A stretch of DNA of 55,202 nucleotides, filler included, from Jimgerdemannia flammicorona (Eukaryota): the NCBI GenBank assembly GCA_003990765.1. It is 3 parts of 3 records of this genome, joined end to end, with 100 filler letters (N's around TTAATTAATTAA, not from the genome) between each part and the next. Parts side by side here need not be neighbours in the genome. Positions count along the whole stretch, not along the records: positions 1 to 18,336 come from RBNJ01002233.1; 2 more parts are not named here. One strand, 5' to 3'. A program made the position numbers and the translations under genes. Below the pieces are notes generated by a model. The model was not told where the DNA came from. It saw only the letters and a list, made by a program, of their open reading frames with translations, and did not search any database. Of the stretch, positions 5,073-44,136 are shown one piece after another (positions within the stretch are counted from its first letter, which is position 1; each line of letters opens with the position of its first letter).

Positions 5073-5666
5073 TTAAAATTTCTGCTTGTTGATCCACTTA
5101 TTAAGGAAGTCCAAGCTGTTGGCGGGCTGATCATAGGGAACCTGTGGAAAAGGAGGAAAGCCAAGAAGAATGAATTTTAGATTCTCAACCGCAACAACCA
5201 AGAGAAAACGAAATCGTCACCTACCATGTGGCCGGCGCCAAACACCCGCAAGAACGTAAACTGTCCGTCGGCAGTGCTGCGGACCTCTCCGGCGACTTCA
5301 CCCGTGATATCCGACACCCAGTCGCGGTCAGCGGCGGCTTGGAACTCCTTTTGGCCCTTCCAGGGTAACTCGAGCGTCCATGCCTTGTTGCCGTACCAGT
5401 TGCAAATGAAGTCGGCGTCGCCTAGGAAAGATGCGAGGTGGGGTTAGGGCCGTTTTACGTTGGTTGATCGGACCGGAGATGCGAATGAATAGAGGGGAGT
5501 TGATGCAGAGAGGAAGACTTACCGGCGTAGATCAGGACACGGATGCCATCCTCGAGGACAGGGTTGAGGGAGCGGTGGTAAGGGCGCATCCTGTATAGCG
5601 CGTTAAGGTCTGATGTGAGCAAAAGCAAAAACGCATACATGTCGTGTGTGTGCAGAATCCACAAAT

Positions 5667-5719
<53 letters not shown>

Positions 5720-7390
5720 TATATATACCAATCACCGGCCAACTGGAACCTAAAGTTTATTTCCATATTGCAGCTCTCATACTTTGTTACCTTAACCCCA
5801 AGCTCGTTCTTCACATCCTCCCTATTCAGATAGGTCTGTATAGCCCCTAGGATCTCATAGCACAGATTCCCGCCCTTGCACTCCTTCCTCACGTCATACA
5901 GGTTCTTCCCCGTCTGCTGGTAGGGCTGAATGTGATCCTTGTTGCACTTGGACGCGGCGGGGAGGCACGAGAAGACATTCTGCGAGTCGTAGCAGTTCTG
6001 AATAAGGCGCGCGCAGGCCGGGTAGGCGTCGCGCATAGTGCTACAGGTACGCTCGTCGAGCACGGCGCCATAAGTCGAGTTGCACCCCATCTCCGCGTAG
6101 TACTTGTACTGCACATACGGATCCGTCAGTCCGTTGCCGATCAGCAGGGAGGCAAGGTTCACGGGCTTGAGTGTTGAGGCATGTTCCCGCAGCGTCAACG
6201 AAGTGAAGTGGCCCTTGTTGGCGCCGTGGATTTGTTCAGCGATCGCGGGGATGTAGTGACCGGCGTCTGTGAAATCGAGTGAGAAATTGCTCGGTGTGAA
6301 AAGTCGTTTGATTGTATGATCGTGGGAGCGAATGGTGGCGTCCAAGGGGATGATACATACAAGATTCACCAGCGATATTAAACTCGAGCTTCTGGTATTT
6401 GGGGAACTCTTTGAAGAAGAGCTGGAGGAAGGCGTAGACGTCCTTGGCAGCGGCCACCGTGTTGGTGGCTGAGCCGCTGCCGTAAGAGTAACCGACGTTC
6501 AGGGGCTAATATGAAGTAGAGGCGAGATATATATTACTATTGGCGATGGGAGAAAACGGACACCGACGTCGACAACAACCGAAACGTTCACCAAAAGTCG
6601 AGCAATACCTGGTCCAGGAAAACGACGCTAGCGTTGGCGTTCCAGGAGTACGGGTTCACAGTAGTGTCGCTACCGTCGTCGCTAACCATGCACGGACTAT
6701 GTGCGCGTTTCAGGATGAGGAACAGAAATTGATTAGATCTAACATGAATTAAAACACATACAATCCGGCAATCGTTTTTCATATCAATTTGGCATGGTGT
6801 CATTTTACACGGAAACCCACCCAAGCTCCATAAATAAGCCAGTCAAGGACGAGCAGCCAGGACCACCATTGAGCCAGAGGATCAGGGGATCGGTTGCGGG
6901 CTTATTACGAGACTCAAAGAACCAAAAGAAAAAGTGCTTATCGCTGCTGACATCCAAGTAGCCGGCGATCTACGGAGAGACGAGGATTAGTCGTTTGGTC
7001 TAATTACTGAATATATGATCGGCATTCCCTATGTCCACAAACTCAACCCACCTGTTTCACGTTCGGATCGCATAGCGCGGGCTCCTTATACCTGAACGTA
7101 TACTCTGGGAACGCCGGGTGAGTGAACACGTTGACCCACTCGTCGGCCTTCTTGTCCTCACCCATGATCCCGTCCACGACGCCGCCGACCTTCTTCCCGA
7201 CGTTATCGAGGATCTCGTCTACCTTGGGGTTCCAGATCGCGTTGAGACCGTCGAGCTTCTGCTCGACGAGGCGACCAACGTTGACGAGGCCGGCGAGGTG
7301 CGGGATGAGCTCGGCGTGCGCTGTGAGGCTCGAGAGGGCGATGACGGCGCTGAGGGAGGCCACGGCCGCAAGAGGGCGCGTAAAAATCAT
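5073..7390 (-). CDS. PRC1: Serine carboxypeptidase S10 (carboxypeptidase Y-like), multi-exon
   Basis: Signal/propeptide, [33 protein letters not shown] nucleophile elbow split by an intron, [27 protein letters not shown]; stop TAA at 5073-5075. Confidence 0.93.
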
Positions 7391-7505
7391 TACCTTGGAG
7401 AAGATGAAGTTGAGGTGATTTTTGGGGGGGGTATTAGCTTCTAAGAGGGGAGAGTGTCGAAGGAAGAAAGGAGGATGCCGAAGGAGAAAGGGGTTGGCAG
7501 TGCAG

Positions 7506-7557
7506 CACGGCAGTCACGGCAGTCACGGCAGTCACGGCAGTCACGGCAGTCACGGCA
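7506..7557. repeat. 9-bp tandem repeat (CACGGCAGT) x~5.8 in the divergent CPY/HAP2 intergenic region
   Basis: Five perfect units plus a 7-bp partial unit, read directly. Confidence 0.9.
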
Positions 7558-10164: not shown

Positions 10165-11397
10165 ATGAACTTCCGCGTTCTGTTACCCATCGCGGTGTTG
10201 CTTTCAATAGTCTCCATCCAGACTTCCGCTCAACAATCACGACCTTTGACCTCCTCACTCTACCGGCAACGGTTTACGAAAACCCTTCACCGCCTCCAAC
10301 ATCACCAGCAGCCCACCCCAACCACCTCAACTCACAACCTAGGTGTAACTACGTCTGCCGGCCCTAGCGTCGGTCGCGTGCGCGACTACTTCCTCACTGT
10401 CGAAGAGCTAGACTGGAACTACGCGCCGACGAAATGGGACCATCTGTACGGCAAATCTCTCAACGACTCCATGGCCGCCCTTTACACGGTCCACTCTCTG
10501 AACCCACCGCGCGTCGGGGCCGTCTACCGCAAAGCGGCCTACCGAGCCTACACGGACGCTAGTTTTCGCATGCGCATCTCGCACGACTCTTACCTCGGCA
10601 CTTTGGGGCCCGTGATCCGCGCTGAGGTCGGTGACCGCGTCCGCGTGCGGTTCAGGAACATGGCGTCAAGGAACTACTCCGTGTACCCGTATGGTGTCGT
10701 CTCGCGATACGATCGAAGCAAAAAAGCAGGTGCACCCATTACACCGGGGGAGGAGCATGTTTATGAATGGGATATTCCCGACCGTAGCGGGCCAGGGCCA
10801 AAAGATCCATCGTCGCTCGTCTGGGCATACGTCTCCGACGCTAACCCCACGCGAGACCTCCACTCGGGTCTCGTCGGCCCGCTGATAGTTTACAAGCGCG
10901 GCCTACTCGAACCGGGTATACTGTACCCGACCAAGCAGGACTTCGACCAGGAGATTGTGACGATCATGATGGTCAACGACGAGAACCGGTCGCACTACCT
11001 CACACAATCCCTCGCGCTCGCAGGGCTACCCACTTCCGCCGGCATTGACCTGACAGACGCGACCTTCCGCGAGTCAAACCGCATGTACAACGTGAACGGG
11101 TTCGTCTTCAACAATATGGAGCCGCTGATGCTCGTGCAGGGCTCCCGCGTCCGCTGGTATCTCATGACGCTCGGCGACGAGATCGACATCCACACAGCGC
11201 ACTGGCACGGTGCCACCACCCTCATCGGCGGGCACAGGCTTGACACTGTCGAGCTGCTGCCAGGGACGTTCCGCACTGCGGATCTGGTGCCGGATAACCC
11301 GGGACAGTGGCTGTTCCATTGTCATGTCTCCAAGCATATGATGGCGGGGATGTCAGTGTTCTATCAAATACTGAGCACCAATGGGGAAGAGTGGTGA
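10165..11397 (+). CDS. Secreted two-cupredoxin-domain ceruloplasmin/hephaestin-like multicopper protein (single A-type domain), intronless
   Basis: Signal peptide; WNYAP, YRKAAYRAYTDASF, LGTLGPVIRAEVGD, GPGPKDP, DLHSGLVGPL, IDIHTAHWHG, NPGQWLFHCHVSKHMMAGM. Confidence 0.88.
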   Translation: MNFRVLLPIAVLLSIVSIQTSAQQSRPLTSSLYRQRFTKTLHRLQHHQQPTPTTSTHNLGVTTSAGPSVGRVRDYFLTVEELDWNYAPTKWDHLYGKSLNDSMAALYTVHSLNPPRVGAVYRKAAYRAYTDASFRMRISHDSYLGTLGPVIRAEVGDRVRVRFRNMASRNYSVYPYGVVSRYDRSKKAGAPITPGEEHVYEWDIPDRSGPGPKDPSSLVWAYVSDANPTRDLHSGLVGPLIVYKRGLLEPGILYPTKQDFDQEIVTIMMVNDENRSHYLTQSLALAGLPTSAGIDLTDATFRESNRMYNVNGFVFNNMEPLMLVQGSRVRWYLMTLGDEIDIHTAHWHGATTLIGGHRLDTVELLPGTFRTADLVPDNPGQWLFHCHVSKHMMAGMSVFYQILSTNGEEW

Positions 11398-12456: not shown

Positions 12457-15400
12457 ATGACCCATCAACAGCGCTACCCGCAGGAGCAGCGCCCCATCAA
12501 CACACACATCGACCCGCGGGTCTCGCCCAACCTGACCTCGCGACCCACACCCAGCCCGCGAGGCTCGCCCGGCCTGCGAGTCTCACCCGCCTCGCGACTC
12601 ACACCCAGCCCGCGAGGCTCGCCCGGCCTGCGAGTCTCACCCGCCTCGCGACTCACACCCAGCCCGCGAGGCTCGCCCAGCCCGGGATTCCCGCCCAACT
12701 CGCGCTACTCCTACACTGGACACCTTTCTCCACAGTCCACATATGATCCACTGGCCGCCGTCTTCCTCGCTGTCCAGCAGCGCGACGTGAATTACCTCCG
12801 CACCGTACTCGACCGAGACCCGCTCGATTTGAATGCGGCACGAGATCGCGAGGGGCGTACGCCGCTCATTCTCGCGTCCGCGGAGGGGGCGTTTGAGATT
12901 GTCAGGTTCTTGTGTGGCGTGCAAGGGATAAATCTGGATTTGCAGGGTAGGTTTTGGGGGCATCTTTTCGGAGGTGTTTTGTCTGTGGCGCTTCGTACTA
13001 TATATCTCATCATCCGGTCCCTCCCGTTCAACAGATTATGAAGGTAACTCGGCGATACACCACGCATCCTTAGTTGGGTGGGCCGAAATCGTCGACCTCC
13101 TGATACAAGCTGGTGCCTATGTCGAAATCGAGAACGATGTGGGTACATTCCTTCCCCGTTTTCCCCCCTGCTTACTAGGCACTCCGAAACTGAATATTTC
13201 TTTTGGGATTCGTCTGAAACAGCAACACCTCACCCCTCTCATCGTCGCCGCCTATAGTGGCCAGGCCGAGGCATGCGCGCGGTTACTGGACGTGGGCCGC
13301 GCTGACCTTAACCACCGCGACGGCTCGGGCAAGACAGCGACCATACTGGCGGCGTATGAGGGGCATACCGATTGTGTGAATGTGCTACTGAAACGTGGAG
13401 CGAATATTGATGCGCAGGATCAGGTAAGAGGATGAGGAGGGTAGAACGTGCACCTGATGATGGTAGAGGTTAGGTTGTCTTTAAAAATCAACGACTCAAA
13501 ATTTTTCAATTTTTAATAAACGCACGCGCCGTGCCATTCGCACCCATCAGTACGGTTGGACGGCATTGATGCTCTCCGCCCATGCAGGCCAAATGGAAAT
13601 GTGTCGCCTCCTCCTCGTCAATGGCGCCAACCGCAACATCCGCAGTGGCAGCAACAAAGACGCAATGCTCCTCTCGCGGGACGCAGGTCATGCGGCGATC
13701 GCGGACATGATAGCGACTGGTGGCAGGATGCCGTCTACCCCCCGACCTCCAGGTGCCTCCTATGCCGAATACGGCGTGAAACCACCGCCACCGAAGCCGC
13801 CTGTGACCCCGAGACTCTTTGGCGATGTTCCAATAGATCGAGATAGCTTGGGCCTTGTAATACCCAAACACGACCCCAGGCGCGGCCGCGACCGACTGGT
13901 ACCAAGAAGCCAACGGCAGCGGGGCAACCCGCTATCCATGGGCGGGGCAACCTCGTCGATGCAATGGATCTCGCCGACGCACGGGCGGACGCCACTCAAC
14001 CCTGGCCAGGCGCAGCAGCGGTTGGGCGAACGGCGGGGCCCGGGGGACAACGTGGCGGACCTGCCGCCGCCCTCCAAGGAGAACACGGCGTGGGAACTCT
14101 TCGCGGTCGCCGTCACGTGCTGTTTCCCCAATATCTGCCTCAAGGGGATGGGCAAGAAGGATGCGCAGAGTAAGCAGGCGTGGCGCGAGAAGTGTGCGCT
14201 CTGCTTCGTCATCTTTCTCATCTCGTGCGTCCTTGGCTTCCTTACCTTTGGGCTGTCGTCGTTAGCATGTCAGAAGATCGTGCCCATCTACCCGCAGGAA
14301 GTCGCCGCACGGTACGGGGTCAACTCGACAGGTGCGAGGGTGATGATCGTGCGCGGGCAGCTGTATGATCTTGCGAGCTTTTTTAAGTACGGGTTCCATC
14401 GTCCCATCCTGCCCTACACCGACGCCGACCTAAAGCCGACCATTGACCAACTGTACGGGCAGGATATCTCGGCCCTCTTCCCCGCTAACCCCAACGTCTC
14501 CGGCTGCCCCTTCACGCCGTTGAACGGGCAGCTCTCGCTCGCGTGTAACTTTGAGGGCGACCCGCGGTGGCACTGCCACACGTCCAAGAACTCCAACTCC
14601 ATCCTTAAGTCGCTCAACTTCAACGGCCTCTGGGTCGCCTACACCTGGGACAACATTACACGCGGCGATGGAGGCCGTAAACTCTTAGCCTACAACGAGA
14701 AGGTCTTCGACGTTAGTTCTTACCTAAACCTCTCCCAGGATCAATGGTATCTCGGCATAGACATCAACCACCGTGCCCAGGTCTACGAGTGGATCAGCTC
14801 CTCCGTTGGCAAGGACATCACTCACGACGTGACCCGCAACCCAGCACACAAGGTCTTCATCCCCTGCTTCGAGGACCAGTTCCTGGTCGGCAAGGTCGAC
14901 GGCACCACAATCGGCTGTTACGCTACCAACTTCATCATCATTATCGAGACCGTTATTCTGATGGGCATCACGATCATCAAATTCGTCTCTGCCGTGGCAT
15001 TCGACTGGCTCTTCTCCCGGAAGCTCGGCAAGCTCAGCCGTGAGATAAAGTCCGGCGACAAGATATCATACGTCATGCTCCTTGTCACGTGCTACTCGGA
15101 AGGCGAGGATTCAATGCGCACCACCCTCAACTCCCTCGCCGCTTGCAAGTACTCGGACCGCCACAAGCTGCTCCTGGTCATCGCTGATGGAAATATTACG
15201 GGGTCGGGCGAGAGGCGCAGTACGCCTGACGTGTGCAAGTCGTTGATGGAGAGGCAGTCCCCGGACGAGCCCGAGCCGCAGTCCTACGTCGCCATCGGGT
15301 CCGGGCCAAAGGCACATAACATGGCGCAGGTGTACACCGGCTGGTACGTTTTCTTGGGACACCGGGTACCCATGATACTCATCAATAAGTGCGGGACTCC

Positions 15401-17025
15401 GACCGAACAGGGAAAACCCAAGGCGGGGAATAGGGGAAAACGCGACTCACAGCTGATTATGATGCAATGGTTAAGTAAGGTTCGTTGGCCTTGTCTTACT
15501 AGCTTCTCGAGGAGTTTGCTTTTTTTTTTTTTTTTTTTCCTGATACTCGATGGTATATTAAGCAAGCGCATCCATGATTCTCAACTGATATCTTGTGGAA
15601 TATTCAATCAGATCACATTTAACGAACGTATGACGCCACTTGAATTTGACCTTTTCGAAAAAGTGCGTGGCCTTGTTGGAGTTACAGCTGATAAATACGA
15701 AATGGTTTTGATGGTGGACGCCGATACCCGTATGTACTGTCTTATTCGATTGTCTTGTTTGTAAACCTAATCGGTTCTCTCAGGTTTGAGTATATCAATG
15801 ACTTACTCTTGTAGTAGTAAAACCTGACTCGCTGGCGAGGATGGTGGCGGCAATGGAACGGGATCCGGAGGTAATGGGTCTATGTGGGGAAACCAAAATT
15901 GCAAACAAGTCGCAGAGTTTTACGACCATGATCCAGGTTGGTTTCGTTTTATTATTTATGACGAACCAAATGATTACGTAAAGACTTGGTGATTTCACTT
16001 GCTAACGCATGGCTGAAAATATCATTATAGGTGTTCGAATACTATATCTCACACCATCTCGGCAAAGCATTCGAATCCATTTTCGGTGGTGTCACATGTC
16101 TTCCCGGCTGTTTCTGCATGTACCGTGTGAAGGCCCCAAAGTACGGAGGTTACATCGTCCCGATCCTGGCCAGCCCCGAGATCGTCGAGATGTACTCGTC
16201 GAACGTAGTGGATACGCTGCACCAAAAGAACCTCCTCCTGCTAGGGGAGGACCGGTACTTGACCACGCTCATGATCCGCACCTTTCCCAAGCGCAAGATG
16301 ATGTACGTGCCCAAGGCCGTGTGCAAGACAGTGGTGCCGGACAGCTTCAGCGTGCTTCTTTCGCAGCGCCGACGCTGGATCAACTCGACCATCCACAACC
16401 TCATGGAGCTCATTCTCGTTCCCCAGCTCTGCGGCATCTTCTGCTGCTCCATGCAGTTCGTCGTCTTCCTCGACCTAGTTGGCACCATCGTGTTGCCCGC
16501 CGCGCTGATGCTCTTGATCCTGCTCATCGTTGTCGGGACTGTGTTTCACCAGGACGTTCTATTGCCGCTGCTGTTCATGTCGGCGCTGTTCGTAATGCAA
16601 GCAATCTTGATTTTGCTCACAACGCACAAGCCAGTGTATGTGCTGTGGATGCTCGTGTACATCTTTGCCATTCCTATTTGGAATTTCGTGTTGCCCGTCT
16701 ATGCGTTCTGGCACTTTGATGGTGAGTAGGACAGACCACTGTGTGTTTGTTGTGTCCTCCTCCCTCGGTAATGATGATTATCGTCTCTAACCTCACCCCA
16801 TTTCCCACAGATTTCTCATGGGGTGCGACCCGCCAAATCCAGGGCGTAGACACAGGCCACGGCGAAGGAGCCATGGAAGTCTTTGACCCCTCAACAATCC
16901 CGATGAAAAAATGGCAGGACTGGCACCACGAAAAACGGCGGGCACAACTGATTCAGCGACAGAGAGGTGGTACGATACGCCGGGTTCCCTTGATGAATGA
17001 TAAAGTGTTTGGTGGGCATAAATAG
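12457..17025 (+). CDS. Chitin synthase (division 2, class IV/Chs3-like) with N-terminal ankyrin repeats; exons ~12457-12946, 13035-13138, 13223-13423, 13551-15479, 15612-15730, ~15815-15935, 16031-16721, 16811-17025
   Basis: Ankyrin motifs ([42 protein letters not shown]); AWREK + TM; cytochrome-b5-like luminal region; [48 protein letters not shown]. Confidence 0.92.
12548..12682 (+). repeat. 54-bp coding tandem repeat x~2.5 ([18 protein letters not shown])
   Basis: Near-perfect in-frame duplication visible in both DNA and translation. Confidence 0.9.
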
Positions 17026-17257
17026 TTGTTGGTGGGTTTGTAAATTAGGATGAATGTAACAACATATTAATATCCTGTACTTATATAAGAGGTGGGAATG
17101 AAAACCATCAGTGGCTAGGGAAAATTATCAAACTCTTTTCAAGTTGTGCAAAAATGAGATATAGGAGGAATTGGCTTCTAATGTTGTGACTGGCATTGTA
17201 TGAGACGCCACGAACACGAACCTCCCAAACACCACGATCTTTACCCTTTCTCGCGAC

Positions 17258-18182
17258 ATGGTGAGTATGAAACATTATCTATCTACTGGCCGAAGAAATC
17301 GACACTAACACCCTTGTTCTTGATACACTTATGTATTTAGCCTATTCAATACATTTCTACAATCGTCAAGGACGAAGGTAAATTCGACATATAATCCCCC
17401 GAAAATGTACTCTCCACCGAACACTCACCTAGTTCAACTTTCGCGGATAATGTTCAGCCCACCAAGATGGCATCTGGTCCGTTGCGTGGTCCCGCAACAC
17501 CAACCTTGTTATCACAGGGTCGGCCGACAACACGGTCAACTGCTGGTAGGCGTTTACTCTTGGACTTTTTTATATCCTCTCTACCAGGTCACAACAACTC
17601 AAAATCGAATCTTGTCGGTCTCGTGGATTGCTTGAAGGGATGGTAACTCGAGTACGCTCAAGTGTACTCTGAAGGGTCACCAACTTGGTGTAATATCTGT
17701 GGACGTGAACGCTAGGGGGACAGGTACGAAACAGACTTATTTGGGTAGACTTCAAATTAATGTGAATCGGAGAGAACTTTACTTTCTGCTGCTGACGCTT
17801 TGATTAGTGGCCGCTTCTACCTCCGTCGACTCGCAACTTCGCCTTTGGGACATTGAGAACCAAGGCGTCTGCCTCAAAACCATCAACGCCGGGCCAGGTA
17901 CGTGTACCTCTTCATATGTCTATTTTCATAAGACCTTTCTCCCACCGTCCTCAACACTCTCGATTCGCCACAACTTTGTGTGCTCACAGATGCTATTTCC
18001 TCTGTTGCTTTTCCTCTGTTGCTTCACATTCAGCGGAGGCCTGGGCGGTTAAATTTAGCCCCGACGGTCAGTACTTGGCCGCAGGCTCGCATAAAGGTGA
18101 TCTCAATATTTGGGGCGTCGAGAGCGGCGCGAAGGAATTGACATTGCAGACGCGAAAAAAATTTCTGCTGTGCACGGCTTAT
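17258..18182 (+). CDS. SKI8: WD40 protein Ski8/WDR61/Rec14, 5' part (cut by contig end)
   Basis: ATG-only first exon, then AHQDGIWSVAWS..TGSADNTVNCW, GHQLGVISVDV, AASTSVDSQLRLWD, AGP/AEAWAVKFSPDGQYLAAGS. Confidence 0.8.
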
Positions 18183-18336
18183 GTTCGTATTGATCGTTGC
18201 TTGGAGAAGTTGGGGTGATGTTTTGGAAATGGCGAGGAAGTAGGGCATTGAAAAAATGGCCTGTGATAAAGAAATCCCATCATGGAATAACCAACTCTGA
18301 GTTCCTCCTTCCTTCCTTCTTTCCTTTTTTTTTTTA

Positions 18337-21737: not shown

Positions 21738-24017
21738 ATGAACGTCGCTTCTGGGAGGAGGATGTGGCACGCGTAAGTTCCTTTAGCTCAAAATTAATTT
21801 TATTCATTAGGATGGTTATGCTTTTATAAGATTATAATTATCGGGGCTAAATTGTTTTTCGTTTTTATTATCTAAACTCTAGCTGCGTCTGAAGCGAAAA
21901 GCGGATTGACGTACTTTGGAGATCACTTCTACAGCCGTCAATCATGAAATGAGAACCGTTCTGGATTTTTATGGTGAGAAATCAATGGTACATATCCACT
22001 GAACATGGGGAGCTGGCAAATCAGGATGAGGTATATGAAGTGAAGTAAATGTGTTCAATTATTAAGGGTTTGACTATTCATATGATGAGCACAATAGACA
22101 GGAGTTTACTGAAGGCGGGCTTACCGATGAGAGCGATGAACATGTCTATTTCGAGGACGAGGAAGACGAGGTAGTATGAGCTTGTACATTTACTGCGAAG
22201 TGGCAACATGTTTTGTATCTCATTCCGATTTCCTCTCCACAGACTTCGAAATCAAGAGCTTCGGGGCCGATCATAGCTCCTGCCACTATACGGTTTATAT
22301 GGAATATTTCGGCAATTACGAAGGGCAAGCTGTCGATCCTGCCCTATTTCTGGAGAACAATGAAGAATACAACATGGGCACTCATTTTTACCAGCCTTTC
22401 GATCACGGTGTGTGGGAAACATGGACCTCGAAGTCTGGTTCGAAAGTCCATAACTTCTTAAAGGCAGCAGCAAGAATTAAAGGTCATCAGTTGAGGTGAG
22501 TATTCGTTGTATTCTTGATGGCCATCACCGATTTTGCAGCCAGCTGACTACATTCAAATTTCTTAGGCCTGAAGTCTGGGGCATCGTTCGTTGCAGCCTA
22601 AATATTGCAAATGCCAAGTGGTGTAACAAGGAAGAATACGCCGAAATTCAGAGAAGCACCAAAAGTCAAAGTGTAGTCAATTCTCCAGAGCTAGTCATCA
22701 AGCTGTTGAGACAGGTACCGATCTCTCTCGTCATATCTTCTTGCGTTTGGTGATTTCCTTCGCTTTTTGTACTGTAACCCCTTCATTGGCCACAGAAATT
22801 GCTTTCATCTTTGGAAAGAGATCAAAATGAGCGAGCTGATCACGAGGCACTGTTTCTCGATGGTGACGTTACGACTACAGGAGGAATTTACTACAGATGC
22901 TTTCGGAAATTTCTCCCTCCCTGGCACCGCAAGACCTCTCGACCAAGTTCTTCATGCAAATTATAACCCGATTGTGAGTGATTTTTGTCCTTAGTTGCTT
23001 GTACTTGCGATGTCCGATGTCCATGCTGAATCATGTCTTCCCACTCCTTAGCACCCAATACATTTTTCCCGAGAGTTCCATCATGCAGCAAATCGGCGTT
23101 TCAGAAGCTAGTTACGCTGCCTACATCATCCACCCTTGTCTCATCGACCTTCTCTTAGGCATGGAGGACTGTGTGCATTACGAGCCGTAAGCACTCGTCC
23201 TGACCTTTCTTTCAGCAAAAATCTTGTTCGTTATTCATTCCGAACTCCTCTTACCTTCTTCAAGCGGTGAGAACATTCTTGACTCGATAGAATTGTGCCA
23301 TGAACATCGAAAATCCACAAGCACTTTTAAGCAGAAAGCTGACGGGATCATGTTTACCCGTATAACGAGATCTCTAGTTAAGATTGGACATTTGGAGATG
23401 AGCGGTGGCTACGATCACAAGGAGATACCATGGTCAACCTGGGATGGATGCTGCAAAGGTCCTGTCAGCTGCGCCTATATGTTAGAGGAGATTGGCGAAC
23501 GGTTTCGTGGCGTCTCTGAGGACTTATGCCGAGACCAGTCGTTTCCTTCATGACCCTTTTTTTTTTTTGCCACTCGTCTGATATTGTTCTTTCGCTTTTC
23601 AGGGAATCAGATCGAGCTTTGGCAGATGTATTGTCAGGCTCGTGGCATCTTGCAGCTTGAGAAAACTCACAAGGCCATCGTTCCTATGAGCTTCGCGGGA
23701 CAGCGCAAACATCTATTCGATTTCGTAGTCTTCTTGTGGGATTTAAAGGTATATTAAGTCAATTTCTTCTCATATGTAATTGTCCATCCATTGTTTCCTC
23801 ACCTCACCATATCCCTTGTTCTCAACACGGCTTGTTGAAAACTGCTCAATGGATCTCTCAGCTGCGAGAAGAAGATGACAATAATCTGTCAGGGGTCTCT
23901 GATCTCTCTGGCGGTCTCCCACCTCATCCGCTCACCCTGAACAAAGAGAAGCTCAAAACGACCGTCATGGTCGTGCTGCCAAACAGCAATAGCCTCAGCT
24001 CACCCATTCGACAATAG
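21738..24017 (+). pseudogene. Decayed multi-exon gene with a C-terminal restriction-endonuclease-like (Crinkler/CR-REase-type) domain
   Basis: Spliced pieces DERRFWEEDVAR, acidic linker, SEASYAAYIIHPCL, KQKADGI..IGHLEMSGG..D..CKG, IELWQM..VP..FLWDLK; in-frame TGA codons in the exon at 21883-22030. Confidence 0.55.
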
Positions 24018-24239
24018 CTGGACAACTCTCGTTTAAAGTCAGTTGACAGACCCCGATAAAGCCTGTACATTTTTTTTTTTTTTTTCGGTTGCACGTCTGA
24101 GCGAAATTAGTACACGTTTCCGTTAACCATCTTCCGATTTCACCTAGCCCTCGACTACTGTGCCACCGTACCCGATGTTACTGCAGTAGTATTACCGATG
24201 ACTGGGCATATCATATACTGCAGTAATTAAATACTACCA

Positions 24240-24493
24240 TAAAATAAAGGCAAATCTGTAATTATTTTATTACAATCAGCACAATAAAAATCTTTCTCAT
24301 AATATTACAGAAACACTTATCGATTCATCATCTGTTAATAATATATATATTATATTTCAATTTATCAAGAAGATTGTCATAATATCCTTTATATTATTGT
24401 TGCCTTTTATTTATCAAATTCTCATAAAATTGTATCTCTCAACTGTGAACATCTTATATTGACAATCATTAAGTGTATCACTTTATCCTCTTA

Positions 24494-24524
<31 letters not shown>

Positions 24525-25640
24525 TATTATTTTTACAAATACCAAGACACTTTATTAGCCCTAATCTATACTATATATGTATATATAAATGTCCTCTTAT
24601 CACAGCAGCCTCAGAGAATTAGGTTCAGAGAGTCCTGGAACTCTCAATCTTCTTCTCTTATTTACCTTATCCTCTGAGCTATCCAGATGTTATATTCTTC
24701 TTTAGCTATCTAATATTCTCCCTCAGACCTCAGCTCTAGCAGCTACATCACTACCAATACTCTTTTAGGAATATGTCCCCTCTTACCTGGCCCCTGCAAC
24801 TACTAGGTCTATATAATCTTTAATATTATAAACTATTACTATTCATTAGATTTCTCAATTATATTTATCTCTCTCTCCCAAACATCCATCTCTAATAATA
24901 GTTTATAAGAACCCAAAGACCCATAATTCTTCCCAAATCACTCTATATATTTTCTACTCTCTCTGCTAATTACTGCTATAAAGTTACCTCAACCACTTCT
25001 CCAGCTCTCTACTATATACTGCTCTAATAATTCTTCAATATTTTCAAAAACTTTTCATTTCTCTATATCTTGAAAAGATATGCTCTGGTATCTGTACCTC
25101 TATTACTCAACTTCTCATACTACTTATACTCTTAATAGTCTTCAATATACATTCACTCAGTCTTATATTTTAATATAATATCTTTTCCAGAAACTGCTAC
25201 CAAATTACTCAGAACCTGGGAGACAGTAGTTGCTGCAAATTATCTATTCATTTTTATATCTGAACTTATCCCCACTTCTCTCCAAACTCAGTTCTCTGCC
25301 AATCTATAGATTATCTCTCCAAGAATCTCACCCTCAGCTACTTTATAATATTCTTTAATATGTATTTACTCAGCCCTTTATCTCCTATCTCCAAGAGTCT
25401 CAAATCTCACCACCACCTCTATAAATCTCCTTCTTCTACCTTCTTTAGCTTCTGTACTCTCTTATATATATTATTTTTATTATTTTTATTATAAATCTTA
25501 TTTTATTATATAAAATAATTCTATCTAAACCTCTTTATATTTATTTACTTTAAAATAGAGTAATAATATTATAGAGTTAATAAGATTGAAAGATATCTAC
25601 TCAAGTGAGTTATAAATATATTTTAATATAACTTAACATA
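24240..25640. mobile_element. Heavily mutated AT-rich, CpG-poor transposon relic (probably an old LINE)
   Basis: G-poor/C-rich strand bias like the adjacent LINEs, almost no CpG, abundant TpA, no long ORF. Confidence 0.45.
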
Positions 25641-25645
25641 AGTAT

Positions 25646-25891
25646 TGTAACAAACCAAAACATATCACCCGAATTATAACTTAGTCAGATGGCACAAATA
25701 ATTAGCATACTTAACCAGATGACATGGGCTCTCAGCATGATATGACTTCCAGTATATCATAGTTACTTATGACTGCCACACTTATAATTAGCCAGACATA
25801 CCAAATAGGGTCTGTTTACTCTGTATACTGCACAGACTCTGTACACCTGCTATAAGTAGCAAACCTATAGTTAGCCACAAGTAATCAGATA
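25646..25891 (+). mobile_element. Possible LTR fragment interrupted by a LINE tail
   Basis: Composition switches at TGTAACAAACC (LTR-type 5' end) and the segment ends abruptly at the LINE poly(A). Confidence 0.3.
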
Positions 25892-26044
25892 TTTTTTTTT
25901 TTTTATTTTTTTTTTTTATAGTCACTTGGACTCCTTTATTCCACTAGTCTATAGAATTACACTATTTATGTATCACATTGATTACCCTAGAACAACAATG
26001 AACCCAACCCTCCACTATTTGATAATAATACAAGGAAGTGCCCT

Positions 26045-29000
26045 TCAGCCTATACCTTCTTTCCACCTCACCCCCTTCTCACCAAGTATGAGGTGCTCCT
26101 GACTCCTCTGAATAATGTCTAACACCTTCCTCATGGCCCCCAACTGGTGCCTCTTTCCCTGATACCACCACCCTTGCACCACTTCCAAGAGTAACCCCTT
26201 CCACCGCTCCACCAATTCTCCAATTCCCATCCAAGGATCTCTCTTGAACACCCATCACCAGTGCACTGCCATCAGTACCCAGATGCCAATAATCCGACCC
26301 AGGCCTCCCCAGATGTCCCCAATTTCTCCCACCAGTCAACGCTTGATCACCCGACAAGTGGGGCCCCCTGCCTGCTCACTCTCTACTCCCCAATAACCTT
26401 CTAATGTCTGCCAAAATCCTTCAACCCCTGGACAATCTGCCAGAACATGCTCCAGTGTCTGCACTACTCCCCCATCCAGCTCACAACACCACTCACATTC
26501 CTTTACACCTTCATCCACCATCCACCCCATCCTGTACCCCAGCATGACATTCCTCCACAGAAATCACCACCATACCACCCAGAACTTTGGTGGGGCAATC
26601 TTAAGTAGAGAGGTCCCCCAACTCCAAATCTGGCCCCACTCCCACTCTTCTCCAAACCCAGCCTTCTACCAACCAACTGGCCACCTCTTGCATGGTCCTG
26701 TCCAGATCCACTCCATTGCCCCAGTTAAAGAGTATTCTACCAACAAATGGCCACCAATATGAATCACACCAAATTGCCACCATTGCTGTTCAGGGTTCTC
26801 CTCTTCTCCACCAGGCTTCGGGCCCATAAGTCCCATTGCTAGCCAAGCTTCTACAATACCCCACCAGAATCCCCGATATCGCAACCTGCCAATCTTTCCA
26901 ACCTGGAGCAAACCTCGCATATCCTTCCGAACCTCACTCCGGGGGCAGAACCTAACTTCTCAATTGTCCATAGCCAGTTTGCTCCAACCCTCACCTCCTA
27001 ATTCTGCCATTTGACAACCCCACCAGCCCTGCAGTACCTTCAGCTGCCTTCTAAAGTCCACCAGCCCCAGACCTCCATCTATCTTTGGCATCACCATTAT
27101 CTCCCAACTAATCTGTGATCTCCTTCTCTGCCATAGCCATCCTTTGACCACCTTCTTCAGTTTCTGTACCACCCACCCTGGAAAGTCCAGGTGGTACCCC
27201 AAGTACTACAGCTTCGGCAACCAATATACATTCAAGACTACAATCCTCCCAACCAAAGAGAATCCCCTCCCAGACCAGCCCACCAAGGCATTCTCCAACT
27301 TCTGTATCAATTCACACCACCACTCTTTCGGCAGCACTGTCCCATATACTGAGAACCAGATACCCAAATATTGGACTGCCTCCCCAGAACCAACTAATTG
27401 TCCAAAATGTCCATGCTCCCCCAAGCCAGTGCCAAGCTCCATAGTCTCACACTTGCCCCAGTTCAGCTTCACCCCTGCCAGCATCTCATACTATCCTACC
27501 CCTTCCTGCAAGCTCGCTACATCTTCCACACTGCCTAACCCTACCACTATGTCATCCACAAAGGCCCCCAGCTTCCAGACCACCTCCCCCATCTTCAACC
27601 CAGTAAGCCTCCCCTTCAGCCATGCTAACAAGGGCTCCAAAGATAAAATATAAAGCAGGGGCGAAAGAGGATCCCCCTGTGGCACACCTTGCCCTAAGAA
27701 AAACTCCAGGCCACTCCACCCATTCATCAACATTACAGCCCAGCAACCTTGCACCAGATCCATCAGTTTTTGAGCCTCCTCCATGCCAAACCTGGCCTTC
27801 CATAGAACTGCCTCCAAGTAGTTCCACCTCACCCTGTCATACGCCTTTTTCTGATCCAAGAACACTATTCTTCCATCTACTTGCCAGCTTCTACAACCCT
27901 CCAAAACATTTTGCACCCAGGCTGTGCTGTCTCAAATCTGTCTCCCCTTCACAAACCCTCGCTGTTCATCACCAACCAATCTGCCAATCCATTGTTGCAT
28001 TCTCCCTGCCAGAATCTTGGAGACCAACTTCCTATCCACATTCAGTAACATGATGGGCCTCCAGTTCTGCCACACACGTCTGTCCCCTTTCTCCTTGTAG
28101 AGCAGCAAGACTAGCCCCAAGAAGCCATTACCAATCCAGCAGCCTTCCCCCAGTGTAAAGTTTGCCATTTCCATGAGCCATACCCCAAACTCAGTTTGAA
28201 ACTCCTTTCAGAACTCCCAGGGCAGTCCATCCTCCCCTGGTGACAAGCCCACCTGCACTTTCCTCAGAACCTCCAACACCTCTTCAAGGGTCACCCTACC
28301 CATTACTGTCCCACCAATTGCAGGCTCTGCCACTACTGGCCAGCTGCCAACCAAATTGTTGTTATCCTCCAGTGCTGCCTCTCCCTCCACCAGCCCTCCA
28401 TCATCCTGCCATAGGGAGCACCATCTACCAGAGATCTTCCCAAGCATGTCCGTGATATCTGTCACCTCTGTTCCATCCTCTCGCAACACTGAAGCCCAGC
28501 TGTGCCACACCCTCCTGGCCTTCAATATTCTGGATAAGTATTTGGTGGGTTGCTCTCCTTCTTCCAACCACTTTACTCACAATCTTACCAGCAACCCATC
28601 TACCACCCTATCTTCTGCTGCCTTCAAATCTGACCGCAACTCAGCCACCTCCTTGATCAACAGGGAGCGTCGATCCCCTGGGGCATTCTCTCCTTCCAGA
28701 AGTTTTAGTCACCAGTGAAGCCCCTGCTCCACTCTCTTTTCTCTATCCTTCTGCTCCCTTCCAGCTACCTCCCCTATGTCATGCCAATATGCACCTGCTA
28801 GATGTTTAAATTTCCCCCACCACTGTGCTATTGACTGGCCACTGTTCTTCCACCATGCTACTTCCTGTCCTGCGATTGTAACAAACTTGTCCTGCTCTAC
28901 CTGTCGCTTGAGTAGTGCCACATTAAGTCGCCATCTTCCTCTGCCACTACTGGCTGCCTGGAATCTCCCACACACCTCTACACCCCAGTGATCTGACCAG

Positions 29001-29680
29001 GGACACCACCATACCTCTGACGAATCCAAAATATTACCCCAGTGTTCTGCTACCAGGATCCAGTCAATCCTCATCCCAACCAAATTCTCACCAATTGGAT
29101 GCCACCTAGTAAATGGCCCTGACTTCTCACCTCGATGTTGTCATACTCCATCAACTAATCCCATTTCCTTCTCAGCTTGAAGCCATCATGAGAGCCCAGT
29201 GGAAACTGCTACACCGACTCCACCATCCGACCTATCTAATGTCCTATCATGCACCATGTTGAAGTCCCCTCTCGGCATATCTAGCCCAATCTCATCTCGG
29301 CCTCCCCAATCCAGCCAACCTTCCACCCATTGGTTTCACTCTCTGCCAACTGCTGGCAGATACACTGAGCCAACCACCAATCCATCACCAGCTCCTTCTT
29401 TCAATCTCCCCCAGACCAATCGATCACTATATATCTCAACCTCCTTTAGCTCTCCTCTCCCCAAGCCAACCAAGATGCCCACCTGCTCATTCCACCCTGT
29501 ACTACCATACCATTCCTTGCTCCACTCCTCATAATCTTGCTCCCCATAGGCCCAAATGTCCTGCAGAAATACCACATCATACCTCCTATTCTTCAGCTAC
29601 TGAAACAGACACCTTCACTTCACTCCATCATGCAAACCATTGACATTTAGTGATAATATACGTAGACTGTTCATCATCAT
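26045..29680 (-). pseudogene. LINE ORF2 (AP endonuclease + reverse transcriptase + C-terminal Cys/His finger) with many stops
   Basis: LSLNVNG, VFLQD, DFN, RIDWI..SDH, SPGEDGLP, NWRPI.LLNVD.K, LDQ.KAYDRV, GVPQGDPLSPLLY, AFVDD, YLGI, CEWC..TLEHVL..C. Confidence 0.92.
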
Positions 29681-29692
29681 GAATATAAATAT

Positions 29693-31384
29693 TTAAAGCT
29701 CAGCTGGAGTTGCCACCACCTTTTCAGCCCTACCACAGATTATTGCCTTCCATTCCTTGCAGATAGCCCTCCAGATGCAGGCTCCATTCACACCACTGCA
29801 GAAGGCATCCACCTGCTCTGATGCCACCCTTCTGATATCGGCCATATGGTCCTCATCTATCTCATATTCTTCATCATCCAGAAGTGCTGCCACCATCGCT
29901 GTCACCAACTTCAGCCCCTGTAATACCACATTGAGGAACTCTTCCCAGGCCTCCTGCGATCCATTAAATACATCCACTTCCTTGATATCCTCCTCTGCAA
30001 GTTCCTCGAGTACTGCCTGATACCAGTCATCCGCTGTCATCACCATGGGCCCAGGAGTGGCTGGCCTTGGGGTCCTGCTCAGCTCCTGCAGCATTTCTCT
30101 ATCCACCAACACATTAGAAGCCACATCCACCAGGTCATCCTCCTCAGTACCCTTCTCCAGCCGAACTACTTTGCCTGCTTCTGGGCATTCCCAATGAACA
30201 TTTGCTGCTCCCGCCATGTGAACATCCTCCAACTGGGTCTCCGGTACCACCTCAACAGCCTCCTCAAAGCCCCCAGTGTTCGCCTCCTCCTTATCAGCCC
30301 ACTTCCCCTTTACTGGTACATGAGTAGAGTTCTCCACTCCCCCTAGTTGTGAAAAGGATACCTCAGCCATCTCCACCTCTTCCATCTGATTTTTGGCCAT
30401 CTCTACTCTTTCCTTTTCCTCCTTTTCTGAGCCCTGGAGGACCATCTGCAGGTGCTCCCAGTTTGCCCTTCACCACCTCTTCCTCCTCCCATCTGTCAGG
30501 ATCCAGATCCAGTCCTTGGCAAACTCCTCCCATCTCCTCTTCCGCAATTCCTTCACAGCCTCTCTCTCTTCTAGAGCAACTAGCAATTCCTCCTCCTCCT
30601 GTTCAGAACCCTTCCTTCTCCACACTTTGCACTCCTGCCCTCCAATATGAATCACTTCTGGCTAGTCCCTCCCTAGCCCTGTGGCCTCCTTGCCCTCCAG
30701 TCTCACCATCACCTCGCAATTGCCATTCCTCAGCTTGGTCCCCTCCCAGAACATGAATCCGAAGTCAACCATCTCGCCAAATGCCCCCAGTGCCTCCACC
30801 ACCATTCCTTTGGTCTCCTGTCTCCCCAATGTTGGCAGCCCTTCAACCACCAGTTACACTGCCCATGGGTCCCACCTCAGGCATCTCGCCATGCTGACCT
30901 TAATGCTCTTTATGACCAGCTCCTTCTCCAGGGCCTTCACCATCTCCTCCTCCTTAACAAATCCTATCTCAACCACCTCTGCCGATGCGATAAACTTCAG
31001 TGACTCTGCCCCTGCAATCTCCTCCCCCACTAGCCACAAGACTTCTCTAGCAGACATCTCCAGCTCTAAAAAATTCGCTGAAATGGCCCACGTCGATACC
31101 GACTTGTGGAAGAAGGGATGCACCACCAGTTCACCAGAACCTGCTGCCATCATTGTCTTCTTCTTGTTCTCCGACACTCCAGCAGTCACCCCAGCCACTG
31201 GCCCAGCCCCAGGAATACCAGTCCCAGCCACACCACTTCCGGACCCCTGGCCCCTAGTAGGCACCTGACCTGTCACCTGACCAGTCACCTGACTGGTCAC
31301 CTGACCCCTACCCCTGTCAACACCATGTCCCCCCTGCCCTACCCCCATGGGCCTGGCAGCTGCCCTCTTGCCCCCCATTACCAT
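29693..31384 (-). pseudogene. LINE ORF1 (nucleic-acid chaperone-like), interrupted by in-frame stops near 30854 and 30662
   Basis: Collinear same-frame ORF pieces 31384-30854, 30850-30662, 30655-30470, then 30445-29693, directly upstream of ORF2. Confidence 0.75.
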
Positions 31385-31421
31385 GAGCCAACTCTCAATG
31401 CCAGCCTGCCTTCCCTGACCA

Positions 31422-31423
<2 letters not shown>

Positions 31424-31459
<36 letters not shown>

Positions 31460-34403
31460 GTTGCTTGGACTCCTTTATTCCACTAGTCTAAAGAATAACA
31501 CTAGCCATGTATCTCTACGATTACCTTAGAACTACAATGAACCCAATCCATAACTACTTATAATAATACAAAGAAGGGCCATTCAGTCCACACCTTCCTT
31601 CCACCTCACCCCCTTCTCACCAAGTATAAGGTGCTCCTGACTTCTCTGAACAATGTCTAACACCTTCTTCATGGCCCCCAACTGGTGCCTCTTCCCCTGA
31701 TACTACCACTCTTGCACCACTTCTAAGAGTAACCCCTTCCACTACTCCACCAATTCTCCAATTCCCATCCAGAGATCCCTCTCGAACACCCATCGCCAGT
31801 GCACTGCCATCAGCACCCAGACACTGATAATCCGACCCAGGCCTCCCCAGATGTCCCCAATTTCTCCCACCAGTTGACACTTAATCACCCGACAAGTGGG
31901 GCCCCCTGCCTGCTCACTCTCTTCCCCCCAATAACCTTCCAATATCTGCCAAAATCCTTCAACCCCTGGACAAGTTGCCAGAATATACTCCAGAGTCTGC
32001 ACTACTATCCCATCTAGCTCGCAACACCACTCACATTTCCTTACACCTTCTTCCACCATCCACCCCGTCCTGTACCCCAGCATGATATTCCTCTGCAGGA
32101 ATCGCCACCATACCATCCAGAACTTGGGTGGGGCAATCTTGAGTAGTGAGGTCCCCCAACCCCAAACCCAACCCCATTCCCATTCTTCTCCAAACCCAGC
32201 CTTCTGCCAACCAACCGGCCACCTCTCAAGTGGACCTGTCCAGATCCATTCCATCACCCCAGACAAAGAGTATTCCACCAATGGGTGGCCACCAATACAG
32301 ATTACACCAAATTGCCACCATTGCTGTCCTGGGTCCTCCTCTTCTTTGCTAGGTTCTGGGCCCATGAGTCCCATTGCTAGCCAAGCTTCTACAATACCCC
32401 ACCAGAATTCCCTATAACGCAACCTGCCAACCCTTCCAACTTGGAGCAAACCTTGCATGTCCTTCTGAACCTCGCTCTGGGGGCAGAACCGAACTTTCCA
32501 GTTGTCCATAGCTAGTTTGCTCCAACCCTCCCCTCCTAATTCTGCTATTCAACAACCCCACCAGCCTCGAAGTACCTTCAGCTGCCTTCTGAAGTCCACC
32601 AGCCCCAGACCTCCATCTGCCTTCAGCATCACCACAATCTCCCAACTAATCTGTGATCTCCTTCCCTGCCACAGCCATCCTTCGACCACCTTCTTCAGTT
32701 TCTGTACCACCCACCCTGGAAAGTCCAGGTGGTACCCCAAGTACCACAGCTTTGGTAACCAATATACATTCAAAACTATAATCCTCCCAACCAAGGAGAA
32801 GCCCCTCTCAGACCAGCCCACTAAGGCATTCTCCCACTTCTGTATCAATCCACACCACCACTCTTTTGGCAGTACTGTCTCATAAACTGAGAACCAGATA
32901 CCCAGATATTGAACTGCTTCCCCAGGACTAACCAATTGTTCAAAATGTCCAAGCTCCCCCAATCCAGCTCTAAGCTCCATGGTCTCGCACTTGCCCCAGT
33001 TCAGTTTCGCTCCTGCCAGTATCTCATACTGTCCTACCCCTTCCTACAAGCTTGCCACATCTTCCACACTGCCTAACCCTACTACCATATCATCTACAAA
33101 GGCCCCCAACTTCCAGACCACATCCCCCTTCTTCAATCCGGTAAGCCTCCCCTTCAACCATGCCAACAAGGGCTCCAAAGATAAAATATAAAGCAGGGGT
33201 GAGAGAGGATCCCCCTGTGGCACACCTCACCCTAAGAGGAACTCCAGGCCACTCCACTCATTCATCAACACTATAGCCCGGCAACCTCGCATCAGACCCA
33301 TCAGCTTTCGAGTCTCCCCCATGCCAAACCCGGCCTTCCGTAGAACCACCTCCAAGTAGTTCCACCGCACCCTGTTGTAAGCCTTTTCCTGGTCCAAGAA
33401 CACCATCCTTCCATCCACTCACCGGCTTTGACAACCTTCCAAAACATTTTGCACCTAGGCTGTACTGTCTCTAATCTATCTCCCCTTCACAAACCCTCGC
33501 TGTTCATCACCCACCAATCGGCCAATCCATTGTTGCATTCTCCCTGCCAGAATCTTGGAGACCAACTTCCTATCCACATTCAGTAACATGATGGGTCTCC
33601 AGTTCTGCCACACACATCTGTCCCCTTTCTCCTTATAGAGCAGAGAGACCAGCCCTAGAGAACCATTGCCAATCCAGCATCCTTCCCCCAGTGTAAAGTT
33701 CGCCATTTCCACGAGCCATGCCCCAAACTCAGTTTGAAACTCCTTCCAGAACTCCCAAGGCAGTCCATCCTCCCCTGGCAATGAACCAGTCTATGCTTTC
33801 CTCAGAACCTCCAACACTTCTTCAAGGGACACCCTACCCATTACTGCCCCACCAATTGTCGGCTCTGCCACCACTGGCCAGCTGCCAACCAAATTGTTAT
33901 TGTCCTCCAGTGCTGCCTCTCCCTCCACCAGCCCTCCATCATCCTGCCATAGGGTGCACCATTGACTAGAAACCTCCCCAAGCATATCTGTGATATCAGT
34001 CACCTCAGTTCCATCCTCTCACAACACTGAAGCCCAGCTGTACTGCACCCTCCTGGCCTTCAAGATTCTGGACAAGTATTTGGTGGGTCACTCTCCTTCT
34101 TCCAACTGCTTTGCTCACAATCTTGCCAGCAACCCATCTACCACCCTATCTTCTGCAGCCTTCAAATCTGACCACAACTCTGCCATCTCCTTGATCAACA
34201 GGAAGCATTGTTTCCCTGAGGAGTTCCCTCCCACTAAAAGTCACAGCCGCCAGTGCAGCCCCTGCTCTACTCTCCTCTCTCTATCCTTCTGCTCCCTTCT
34301 GGCTACCTCTCCTACATCATGCCAATATGCACCTGCCAGATGTTTAAATTTCCCCCACCACTGTGCTATCGACTGGCTACTGTTCTTCCACTGTGCCACT
34401 TCC
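31424..34403 (-). mobile_element. Second copy of the same LINE family (3' ~3 kb: RT to poly(A)), cut off by an insertion at 34404
   Basis: T-run 31424-31456, then sequence collinear with 25918-28866; same RT motifs with independent stops. Confidence 0.92.
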
Positions 34404-36770: not shown

Positions 36771-36870
36771 NNNNNNNNNNNNNNNNNNNNNNNNNNNNNN
36801 NNNNNNNNNNNNNNTTAATTAATTAANNNNNNNNNNNNNNNNNNNNNNNNNNNNNNNNNNNNNNNNNNNN
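36771..36870. other. Artificial contig linker (N44-TTAATTAATTAA-N44)
   Basis: Identical to the linker at 18337. Confidence 0.97.
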
Positions 36871-43742: not shown

Positions 43743-44136
43743 GGTTGGGTGCGGGATGGGGAATAAAGGACTGAAGCGAGTGGGCAGTTTCTATAGTAGG
43801 GATGCGCCTCAGCCAGATCACGTGCTGAGCCACACAATCTTGTTTCATCGATATTGGTTGAATATCTTTTTTTTTTTGAATATCTTGTTTCATCGGTATT
43901 GGTTGAATATCTATCCCCTTCCCGACCCACCTGTTTGCTTGATGGTGTAGACCGTGCGTTCACACGTCGAAAAAACCCCATCAAATCGAATCTTTATGGT
44001 ATTGCACAAAGCATTCACGTGAAAGCATACACTCTACAGCGGCTGTGTCATGCTATGACATGGAGATGTCTATAGTTATTCACCCATTATCCCCCAACCT
44101 CCAACTCGCATCTCCCCAACTAATCTTCAGCCCTCC

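Follow-up and report, generated by a model that had tools for sequence, protein, structure and literature searches.

A chitin synthase with N-terminal ankyrin repeats in Jimgerdemannia flammicorona, from an old fungal lineage that is a candidate class on the class IV side of division 2

Introduction

Is a chitin synthase that carries ankyrin repeats at its N-terminus a product of gene prediction, an ordinary enzyme with an unusual appendage, or a member of a lineage of its own? The question is raised by a gene at positions 12457-17025 of a 55,202-nt stretch of the Jimgerdemannia flammicorona genome (assembly GCA_003990765.1; three parts joined end to end, hereafter the window), which a preliminary description, made from the sequence alone, had taken for such a fusion. 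In the available part of Goncalves et al. (2016, PMC5122149), division 2 of the chitin synthases consists of two superclasses, with chytrids and blastoclads left unclassified, and the extra domains listed in the available part of Li 2016 are Cyt-b5, myosin and DEK-C only. The ankyrin-bearing enzymes are found here to be real and old; we propose to rank them as a candidate class on the side of class IV, and their chemistry is not new.

Results

Gene structure and transcripts

The gene runs from an ATG at 12457 to a TAG at 17025 and comprises eight exons that encode 1289 residues without internal stops; its seven introns all begin with GT and end with AG and measure 84-132 nt. Start, stop and the bounds of exon 4 are identical to those given in the preliminary description. 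The exons, and the encoded regions in order from the N- to the C-terminus, are:

12457-12946, 13035-13138, 13223-13423 and 13551-15479, plus strand: exons 1-4 of the gene model
15612-15729, 15815-15936, 16031-16721 and 16811-17025, plus strand: exons 5-8 of the gene model
12457-12747, plus strand: disordered, Pro/Ser-rich N-terminal tail (residues 1-97; 21% Pro, 14 SP/TP sites)
12748-13718, plus strand: seven ankyrin repeats (residues 98-321, exons 1-4; W268 at 13557-13559)
13551-15479, plus strand: exon 4, a single open frame with ankyrin repeats 6-7, linker, first transmembrane (TM) segment, presumed lumenal domain, second TM segment and start of the GT domain
13719-14075, plus strand: Pro/Arg-rich linker (residues 322-440)
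14178-14273, plus strand: AWREK motif and first predicted TM segment, TM1 (residues 475-506)
14274-14906, plus strand: presumed lumenal or extracellular domain (CHS4, PF22997; weak cytochrome-b5-like matches; conserved Cys; four N-glycosylation sequons)
14907-15014, plus strand: second predicted TM segment, TM2, with the catalytic domain almost directly after it and without the class-IV-type insert
15087-16378, plus strand: GT2 catalytic domain (TCYSE at 15087, GNRGKRDSQ at 15426, DADT at 15717, GEDR at 16244, QRRRW at 16364)
16448-16824, plus strand: C-terminal membrane helices and SWG motif

Ankyrin repeats and synthase share the open frame of exon 4; the fusion is thus genuine and not a gene-prediction merge, as had been proposed. 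GEDR and QRRRW are intact. Scanned against Pfam on its own, exon 4 matched PF00023 at its residues 1-31, CHS4 (E 1e-11, 45 bits) and Chitin_synth_2 (PF03142, E 4e-50), the last of which was matched again in exon 7 (E 1e-117). The Cyt-b5 family (PF00173) scored 21.9 bits in exon 4, under its cutoff of 23.7, and is above the cutoff in the Rozella orthologue P0274. PF00023 was matched in each of exons 1-4 (E 4e-4, 1e-5, 3e-15 and 3e-7, in order), which bears out the four exons of the preliminary description; its count of five to six repeats becomes seven when both caps are included, as the helix pairs of a structural model also indicate (below), with repeats 6 and 7 inside exon 4. The ankyrin part of this exon has one match in the organism's own genome. 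All catalytic motifs, and SWG, are present in the protein, which ends with a tail of 66 residues after SWG. With QXXEY, EDR, QRRRW, DxD and SWG intact, and with a cytochrome-b5-like domain between the N-terminal membrane segments, the protein has both the motifs and the layout of division 2, and would be expected to synthesize chitin. No Pfam match to a myosin head or to DEK-C was obtained in exons 1-4 and 7, exon 8 lying outside the scan, nor in the orthologue P0001.

Seven public sequencing runs cover the window wholly or partly, two of them most of it, and splice joints were examined in four (X1-X4). A single contig of run X2 (contig record 7) spans 12649-17259 with all seven introns removed, and run X1, from a separate study, has introns 2-7 removed, so that seven of seven and six of seven predicted joints, respectively, are seen. 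The root metatranscriptomes X3 and X4 contributed five and two short contigs only, among which no splice joint was found. The RNA origin of X1 and X2 is a guess, for which the intron-free joints argue. Other splice sites for introns 2 and 5 were tried and broke the frame, save one that moves the intron 5 boundary by 3 nt; the joints seen in the runs fit the chosen model. The gene is transcribed and spliced as a fusion. Several features of the data weaken the case for an exclusively full-length transcript: a contig of X1 is unspliced at intron 1 and carries eight differences, the 3′ part of the gene is at greater depth in X1, the X2 contig continues past the synthase stop into the neighbouring gene, and a contig does not represent a single molecule and does not reveal transcription starts. 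A shorter isoform would be compatible with these contigs.

A 54-bp tandem repeat of 2.7 copies lies at 12536-12682, in the coding sequence of the N-terminal tail. An X1 contig skips 110 bases of it and has two letters instead (net 108, two units, in frame), suggesting that the copy number varies between strains.

Spread of the architecture

With exon 4 as query against long proteins, ankyrin repeats together with PF03142 were found in 17 of 22 matches. The protein from Endogone, the closest named relative (87% identity in the catalytic part), was also used as a query, and a profile detected an ankyrin array in 48 of the best 120 of 4519 matches; an exhaustive search gave 19 of 150 representatives. 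Among 274 collected proteins, a redundant set that contains fragments, 70 have both ankyrins and the membrane region, and the ankyrins are N-terminal every time. Carriers include Rozella allomycis, Blastocladiella emersonii, Basidiobolus, Entomophthora, Syncephalis and Coemansia, as well as Endogone, Calcarisporiella, thirteen genera of Glomeromycota (some with two paralogues), Linnemannia and Mortierella. The combination of ankyrin repeats with Chitin_synth_2 thus recurs in Rozella, Blastocladiella, Zoopagomycota, Glomeromycota, Endogone and Calcarisporiella. The fusion is old and spans Rozella to Mucoromycota.

No ankyrins were seen in those chytrid, Umbelopsis and Dikarya synthases that were retrieved from best-match listings, which is weak evidence of absence because such listings cover the best matches only and gene models omit small ankyrin exons: the same Rozella protein exists as one model with ankyrins (P0274) and another without (P0059). 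In a profile search with a 45-sequence alignment, generic ankyrin proteins crowded the results and no further ankyrin-synthase taxon came to light, and a search of the ESM Atlas returned generic ankyrin clusters only. Four environmental proteins (P0174, P0175, P0061 and P0075) have the fused architecture, and P0061 and P0075 group with Rozella. In NCBI, many ankyrin-synthases of Zoopagomycota and Blastocladiella are labelled 'ATP-dependent RNA helicase', and others bear generic names.

Phylogeny of the catalytic domain

From 202 proteins with a near-complete catalytic domain, 153 were left after removal of near-copies, and six paralogues from the own genome were added to give 159 rows. Trichomonascus Chs3 together with a Rhodosporidiobolus protein, and proteins that bear a myosin head, served to label the classes; no published reference for IVb, IVc or the microsporidian enzymes was identified in this set. 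FastTree divided the rows into three groups, of 44 (ankyrin), 18 (class V/VII-type) and 97 (class IV-type). All 38 ankyrin-bearing rows fell inside the group of 44, and ankyrins were found in none of the 115 remaining rows. In an IQ-TREE analysis of 65 hand-picked rows, support was 99/96 for the ankyrin group, 100/100 for class V/VII and 100/95 for class IV; Rozella and Blastocladiella formed the first branches of the ankyrin group, and its sub-branching approximated the species tree. A quick search with a mixture model on 42 rows gave 90, 100 and 83 for the ankyrin group, class V and class IV, respectively. In these trees the window protein lies outside the sampled class IV and class V/VII groups. 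The distinct subtype suggested in the preliminary description is therefore borne out, and is broader than had been claimed, a lineage reaching from Rozella to Mucoromycota.

A scan of viral contigs for a closer outgroup found nothing, and the tree was therefore rooted with very distant, division-1-type paralogues from the own genome. The root fell on class V, with class IV and the ankyrin group together at 99, in a quick search that carries a long-branch warning. In this rooted tree the ankyrin group appears as sister to class IV, and nearer to it than to class V. Ranking the ankyrin enzymes as a third superclass on a par with IV and V was considered and given less weight, since the branch leading to V is far longer and the outgroup attaches there.

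Several observations weigh against a single, cleanly bounded ankyrin clade. Six of the 44 rows have no ankyrins in their models, some of which are partial; P0014 and P0017, however, lack ankyrins despite long N-termini. The long-branch ankyrin protein P0174 stood beside class V in one tree (inside the ankyrin group, at 95, in another), and a careful run that included it kept the ankyrin rows apart from all others in only 38% of bootstrap trees. In an approximately unbiased (AU) test, joining the Rozella group with class IV was not rejected (p 0.0985). The same careful run recovered class IV without ankyrin rows at 99/100 and class V without the window protein at 100/100. On these alignments, the ankyrin enzymes would either be the sister clade of class IV or form a basal grade to it. 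The distance from TM2 to the catalytic domain is an independent mark that agrees with their separateness: 18 ankyrin proteins have -3 to 5 residues there, seven class V proteins 1-6 and 19 class IV proteins 6-173.

Besides the ankyrin form, the own genome encodes one myosin-head synthase, another copy of the class V type and four paralogues of the class IV type, and Rozella has one class V and two class IV synthases next to its ankyrin form. The ankyrin form thus coexists with class V in both. It had been suggested earlier that the ankyrins perhaps replace the myosin head; in the evolutionary sense this is not supported, since the protein falls with the class IV side by its catalytic domain and a myosin-head synthase is also present in the own genome. 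A further locus of this genome (L014, G000:C2510:2006-5593) encodes a divergent synthase with GEDH for GEDR, QRRRA for QRRRW and a DEK-like end; it may belong to the Mucoromycotina-only synthase group noted in the available part of PMC4141765. Fourteen Chs7-family matches on 11 contigs of the own genome suggest an expanded chaperone family.

Structure and conserved surface of the ankyrin array

An AlphaFold model was made of the Paraglomus orthologue P0007, in place of the window protein, from the 45-sequence alignment (A2). It has a mean predicted local distance difference test (pLDDT) score of 78.8 and a predicted template modelling (pTM) score of 0.59; pLDDT is mostly above 90 in the ankyrin part, which contains seven helix pairs, and below 50 in the linker. 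Such values would be expected of two undocked bodies, and with the disordered linker they fit an ankyrin domain on a flexible tether. The linker sequence is 9-26% identical to that of orthologues other than Endogone and Calcarisporiella. In Foldseek searches the ankyrin part matched designed ankyrin-repeat proteins (DARPins) and ankyrin-B at 1.4-2 A, and the synthase part matched division-1-type synthases; PDB searches returned no close division-2 relative and no fusion of ankyrins to a chitin synthase.

Two residues of repeat 6, W268 and M272, are shared without exception by all 19 representatives of the lineage. At the same repeat position as W268, K235 is kept in 12 of 17 and K301 in 14 of 19. 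Among 117 unrelated ankyrin repeats, W is found at the W268 position in 9%, K in fewer than 5%, and M at the M272 position in 35%. Position 5 of an ankyrin repeat, which from work on DARPins we take to line the binding groove, is the position in question. Two points tell against a conserved binding surface: the 19 representatives are related and hand-picked, so that invariance does not amount to 19 independent events, and conservation of W268 and M272 may be structural.

Degenerate copies in Mortierellaceae

Four proteins placed inside the ankyrin lineage (support 99), three from Mortierellaceae and one relative (P0020, P0157, P0192 and P0197), have degenerate catalytic parts, only 28-35% identical to that of the window protein (30-35% for the three from Mortierellaceae) versus 46-87% in motif-intact members. 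TCYSE, GNRGKRDSQ and DADT are lost in all four, and QRRRW is replaced in both models that extend that far. The membrane part and the ankyrins are kept, and in the three Mortierellaceae proteins the ankyrins are 40-42% identical to those of the window protein, like those of intact members. Against complete loss of catalysis stand the retention of EDR in two of the four and the fact that two models end or merge before QRRRW. The model of P0192 also includes a RabGAP-TBC domain, probably because two genes were merged in prediction. As judged from these motifs, the Mortierellaceae orthologues are likely to be pseudo-synthases. Since the copies keep ankyrins after losing most catalytic motifs, the ankyrin module would be retained apart from catalysis by its own protein, a pattern that favours binding in trans over a switch acting on its own active site.

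Other features of the window

A small, intron-free multicopper-oxidase-like gene with a signal-peptide-like start (10165-11397, plus strand; Cu-oxidase_2, Cu-oxidase_3) lies just upstream of the synthase, and a WD40 gene (17200-18300, plus strand) begins about 200 bp past its stop; contigs span both the synthase and the WD40 gene. About 13 kb at 24000-37000 have a strong negative GC skew (-0.2 to -0.5) and hold broken minus-strand frames that by eye resemble the reverse transcriptase of a long interspersed nuclear element; two frames tested gave no Pfam match, nor did a 412-residue open reading frame at 34552-35790 (plus strand). Further genes are:

5455-7513, minus strand: serine carboxypeptidase S10
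42642-43790, minus strand: F-box protein
45435-47821, plus strand: Stealth-family protein (CR1, CR2)
48715-49917, minus strand: ubiquitin-like and RING finger protein
53060-54301, plus strand: Swiss-Army-Knife HAD domain protein

Discussion

Relation to known synthases

Class IV (the yeast Chs3 type; IVa-c of Goncalves et al. 2016, PMC5122149) shares with the window protein the PF03142 core and an AWREK-TM-cytochrome-b5-like-TM front end, both are without myosin head and DEK-C, and class IV is the nearest group in the trees. The window protein differs from it in the seven N-terminal ankyrin repeats, the absence of the insert between TM2 and the GT domain, and its position outside the sampled class IV group. 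Class V/VII is alike in placing a large cytosolic N-terminal module on a division-2 synthase and in having TM2 abut the catalytic domain (gap 1-6), and is unlike in having a motor where the window protein has ankyrins, in its DEK-C and in a distant catalytic domain (100/100 apart). The solved enzymes ScChs1, CaChs2 and PsChs1 share the GT2 fold and motifs at only 16-19% identity.

In its available parts (PMC5353729, supplementary files 1, 7 and 8), Liu et al. 2017 records ankyrin 'only in 1 CHSIV protein', that of Rozella allomycis. This protein, EPZ33276.1 (P0274), has ankyrins, Cyt-b5 and PF03142, groups with the window protein and is 65% identical to it in the catalytic part, and differs in having about four repeats in its current model; what was a one-off case there is here one member of a multi-phylum lineage. 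The set of Liu et al. includes Rhizophagus and Coemansia, and the 8 of 15 and 8 of 11 rows examined for these contain no ankyrin. The word 'ankyrin' is absent from the main text, as far as available, of Goncalves 2016, Liu 2017, Li 2016 and Pacheco-Arjona 2014, whose supplements, Liu excepted, may mention it, and likewise from the main text of Torruella 2018, a 2025 review (PMC12653383) and a chytrid preprint (10.1101/2025.08.12.668609); in PMC8778642 and PMC4471660, chitin synthase and ankyrin occur in unrelated places of the available text. The lineage is thus apparently unnamed in print, the Rozella supplementary row being the only mention found.

A proposed role for the ankyrin array

The array lies before the first membrane helix, and for this reason would be on the cytosolic face, with the segment between TM1 and TM2 on the lumenal or extracellular side. 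Held on a flexible tether of about 120 residues, its groove would bind a conserved cytosolic protein in trans, and through this contact the synthase would be positioned, retained or scaffolded at a certain site in the membrane or at a certain stage of the life cycle. The job would be comparable to that of the N-terminal sorting signals that steer yeast Chs3 (PMC4207043) and of the myosin head that steers class V synthases (PMC12653383). We regard such docking to a partner that sets where or when the synthase works as the probable explanation. What detracts from it is that the partner is putative and that localisation and activity are predicted. Of the two roles proposed for the ankyrins in the preliminary description, targeting is plausible on this inferred topology, and activation of the protein's own active site is made less likely by the Mortierellaceae copies.

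A wider evolutionary reading, to which we give a modest chance, is that the ankyrin form is ancestral to the class IV side, that the Chs3-type enzymes of yeasts and moulds arose by loss of the adaptor, its job passing to proteins of their own such as Chs4 and exomer, and that the Mortierellaceae gene is a dead pseudo-synthase kept for the ankyrin contact. The trees allow it because the careful run leaves the ankyrin rows unresolved at the base of class IV, because the insert-free junction is common to ankyrin rows and class V, and because all three forms, with ankyrins, of class IV and of class V, are present as early as Rozella.

The array might instead act within its own protein, as an autoinhibitory or zymogen-like switch on the catalytic domain released by phosphorylation of the SP/TP tail or by proteolysis. 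The length of the linker allows contact between the array and the catalytic domain on one side of the membrane, 14 SP/TP sites lie in the tail, and a regulatory role of chitin synthase N-termini is described in the available part of PMC12653383. We nevertheless consider a switch unlikely: the Mortierellaceae ankyrins are conserved although identity in the catalytic domain has fallen to about 30%, and the P0007 model, itself built from only 45 sequences, has no sign of docking. Neither more nor less credible is a role in assembly, in which the ankyrins would mediate homodimers, or heterodimers with other synthases or Chs7-type chaperones, and a degenerate Mortierellaceae copy would serve an active synthase as its regulatory subunit. 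According to PMC12653383, dimers of Chs3 form by way of the N-terminal domain. The dead copies retain membrane segments as well as ankyrins, and the own genome has several Chs7-family matches. Ankyrin arrays, however, usually bind unrelated proteins.

It is improbable, more so than either of these, that the proteins are ordinary class IV (IVb/IVc-like) synthases that gained ankyrins repeatedly and have no special function in common. The Rozella protein was assigned to class IV by Liu et al. 2017 (PMC5353729), the AU test tolerates that placement, the Rozella array is shorter and only 25% identical to that of the window protein, and the compared set had no identified IVb or IVc references. Set against this are the recovery of class IV without ankyrin rows in both analyses (100/95 and 99/100), the W/M motif of the next-to-last repeat common to ankyrin rows, the absence of the IV-type insert from them (gap -3 to 5 versus 6-173) and a sub-branching close to the species tree. 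A merger of a separate ankyrin gene with a chitin synthase, which same-group database models without the ankyrin part (Rozella P0059 versus P0274) might suggest, can be dismissed, being refuted by the continuity of repeats 6-7 and catalytic domain in one exon and opposed by spliced joints in two studies and an identical architecture in several phyla.

Implications

Docking by the ankyrin arm, the reading preferred here, would give division 2 a third N-terminal strategy, next to the myosin motor of class V/VII and the variable tail of class IV that the classifications cited above recognise. If the ankyrin form is as old as the divergence of Rozella, three kinds of division-2 synthase were present in the earliest fungi. 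The form has been kept, sometimes in two copies, in arbuscular mycorrhizal fungi, Endogonales and Zoopagomycota, in which wall building is poorly understood. Its small, soluble ankyrin domain would be a ready bait for a conserved partner in chitin targeting, and the Mortierellaceae copies offer an apparent natural pseudo-synthase in culturable fungi.

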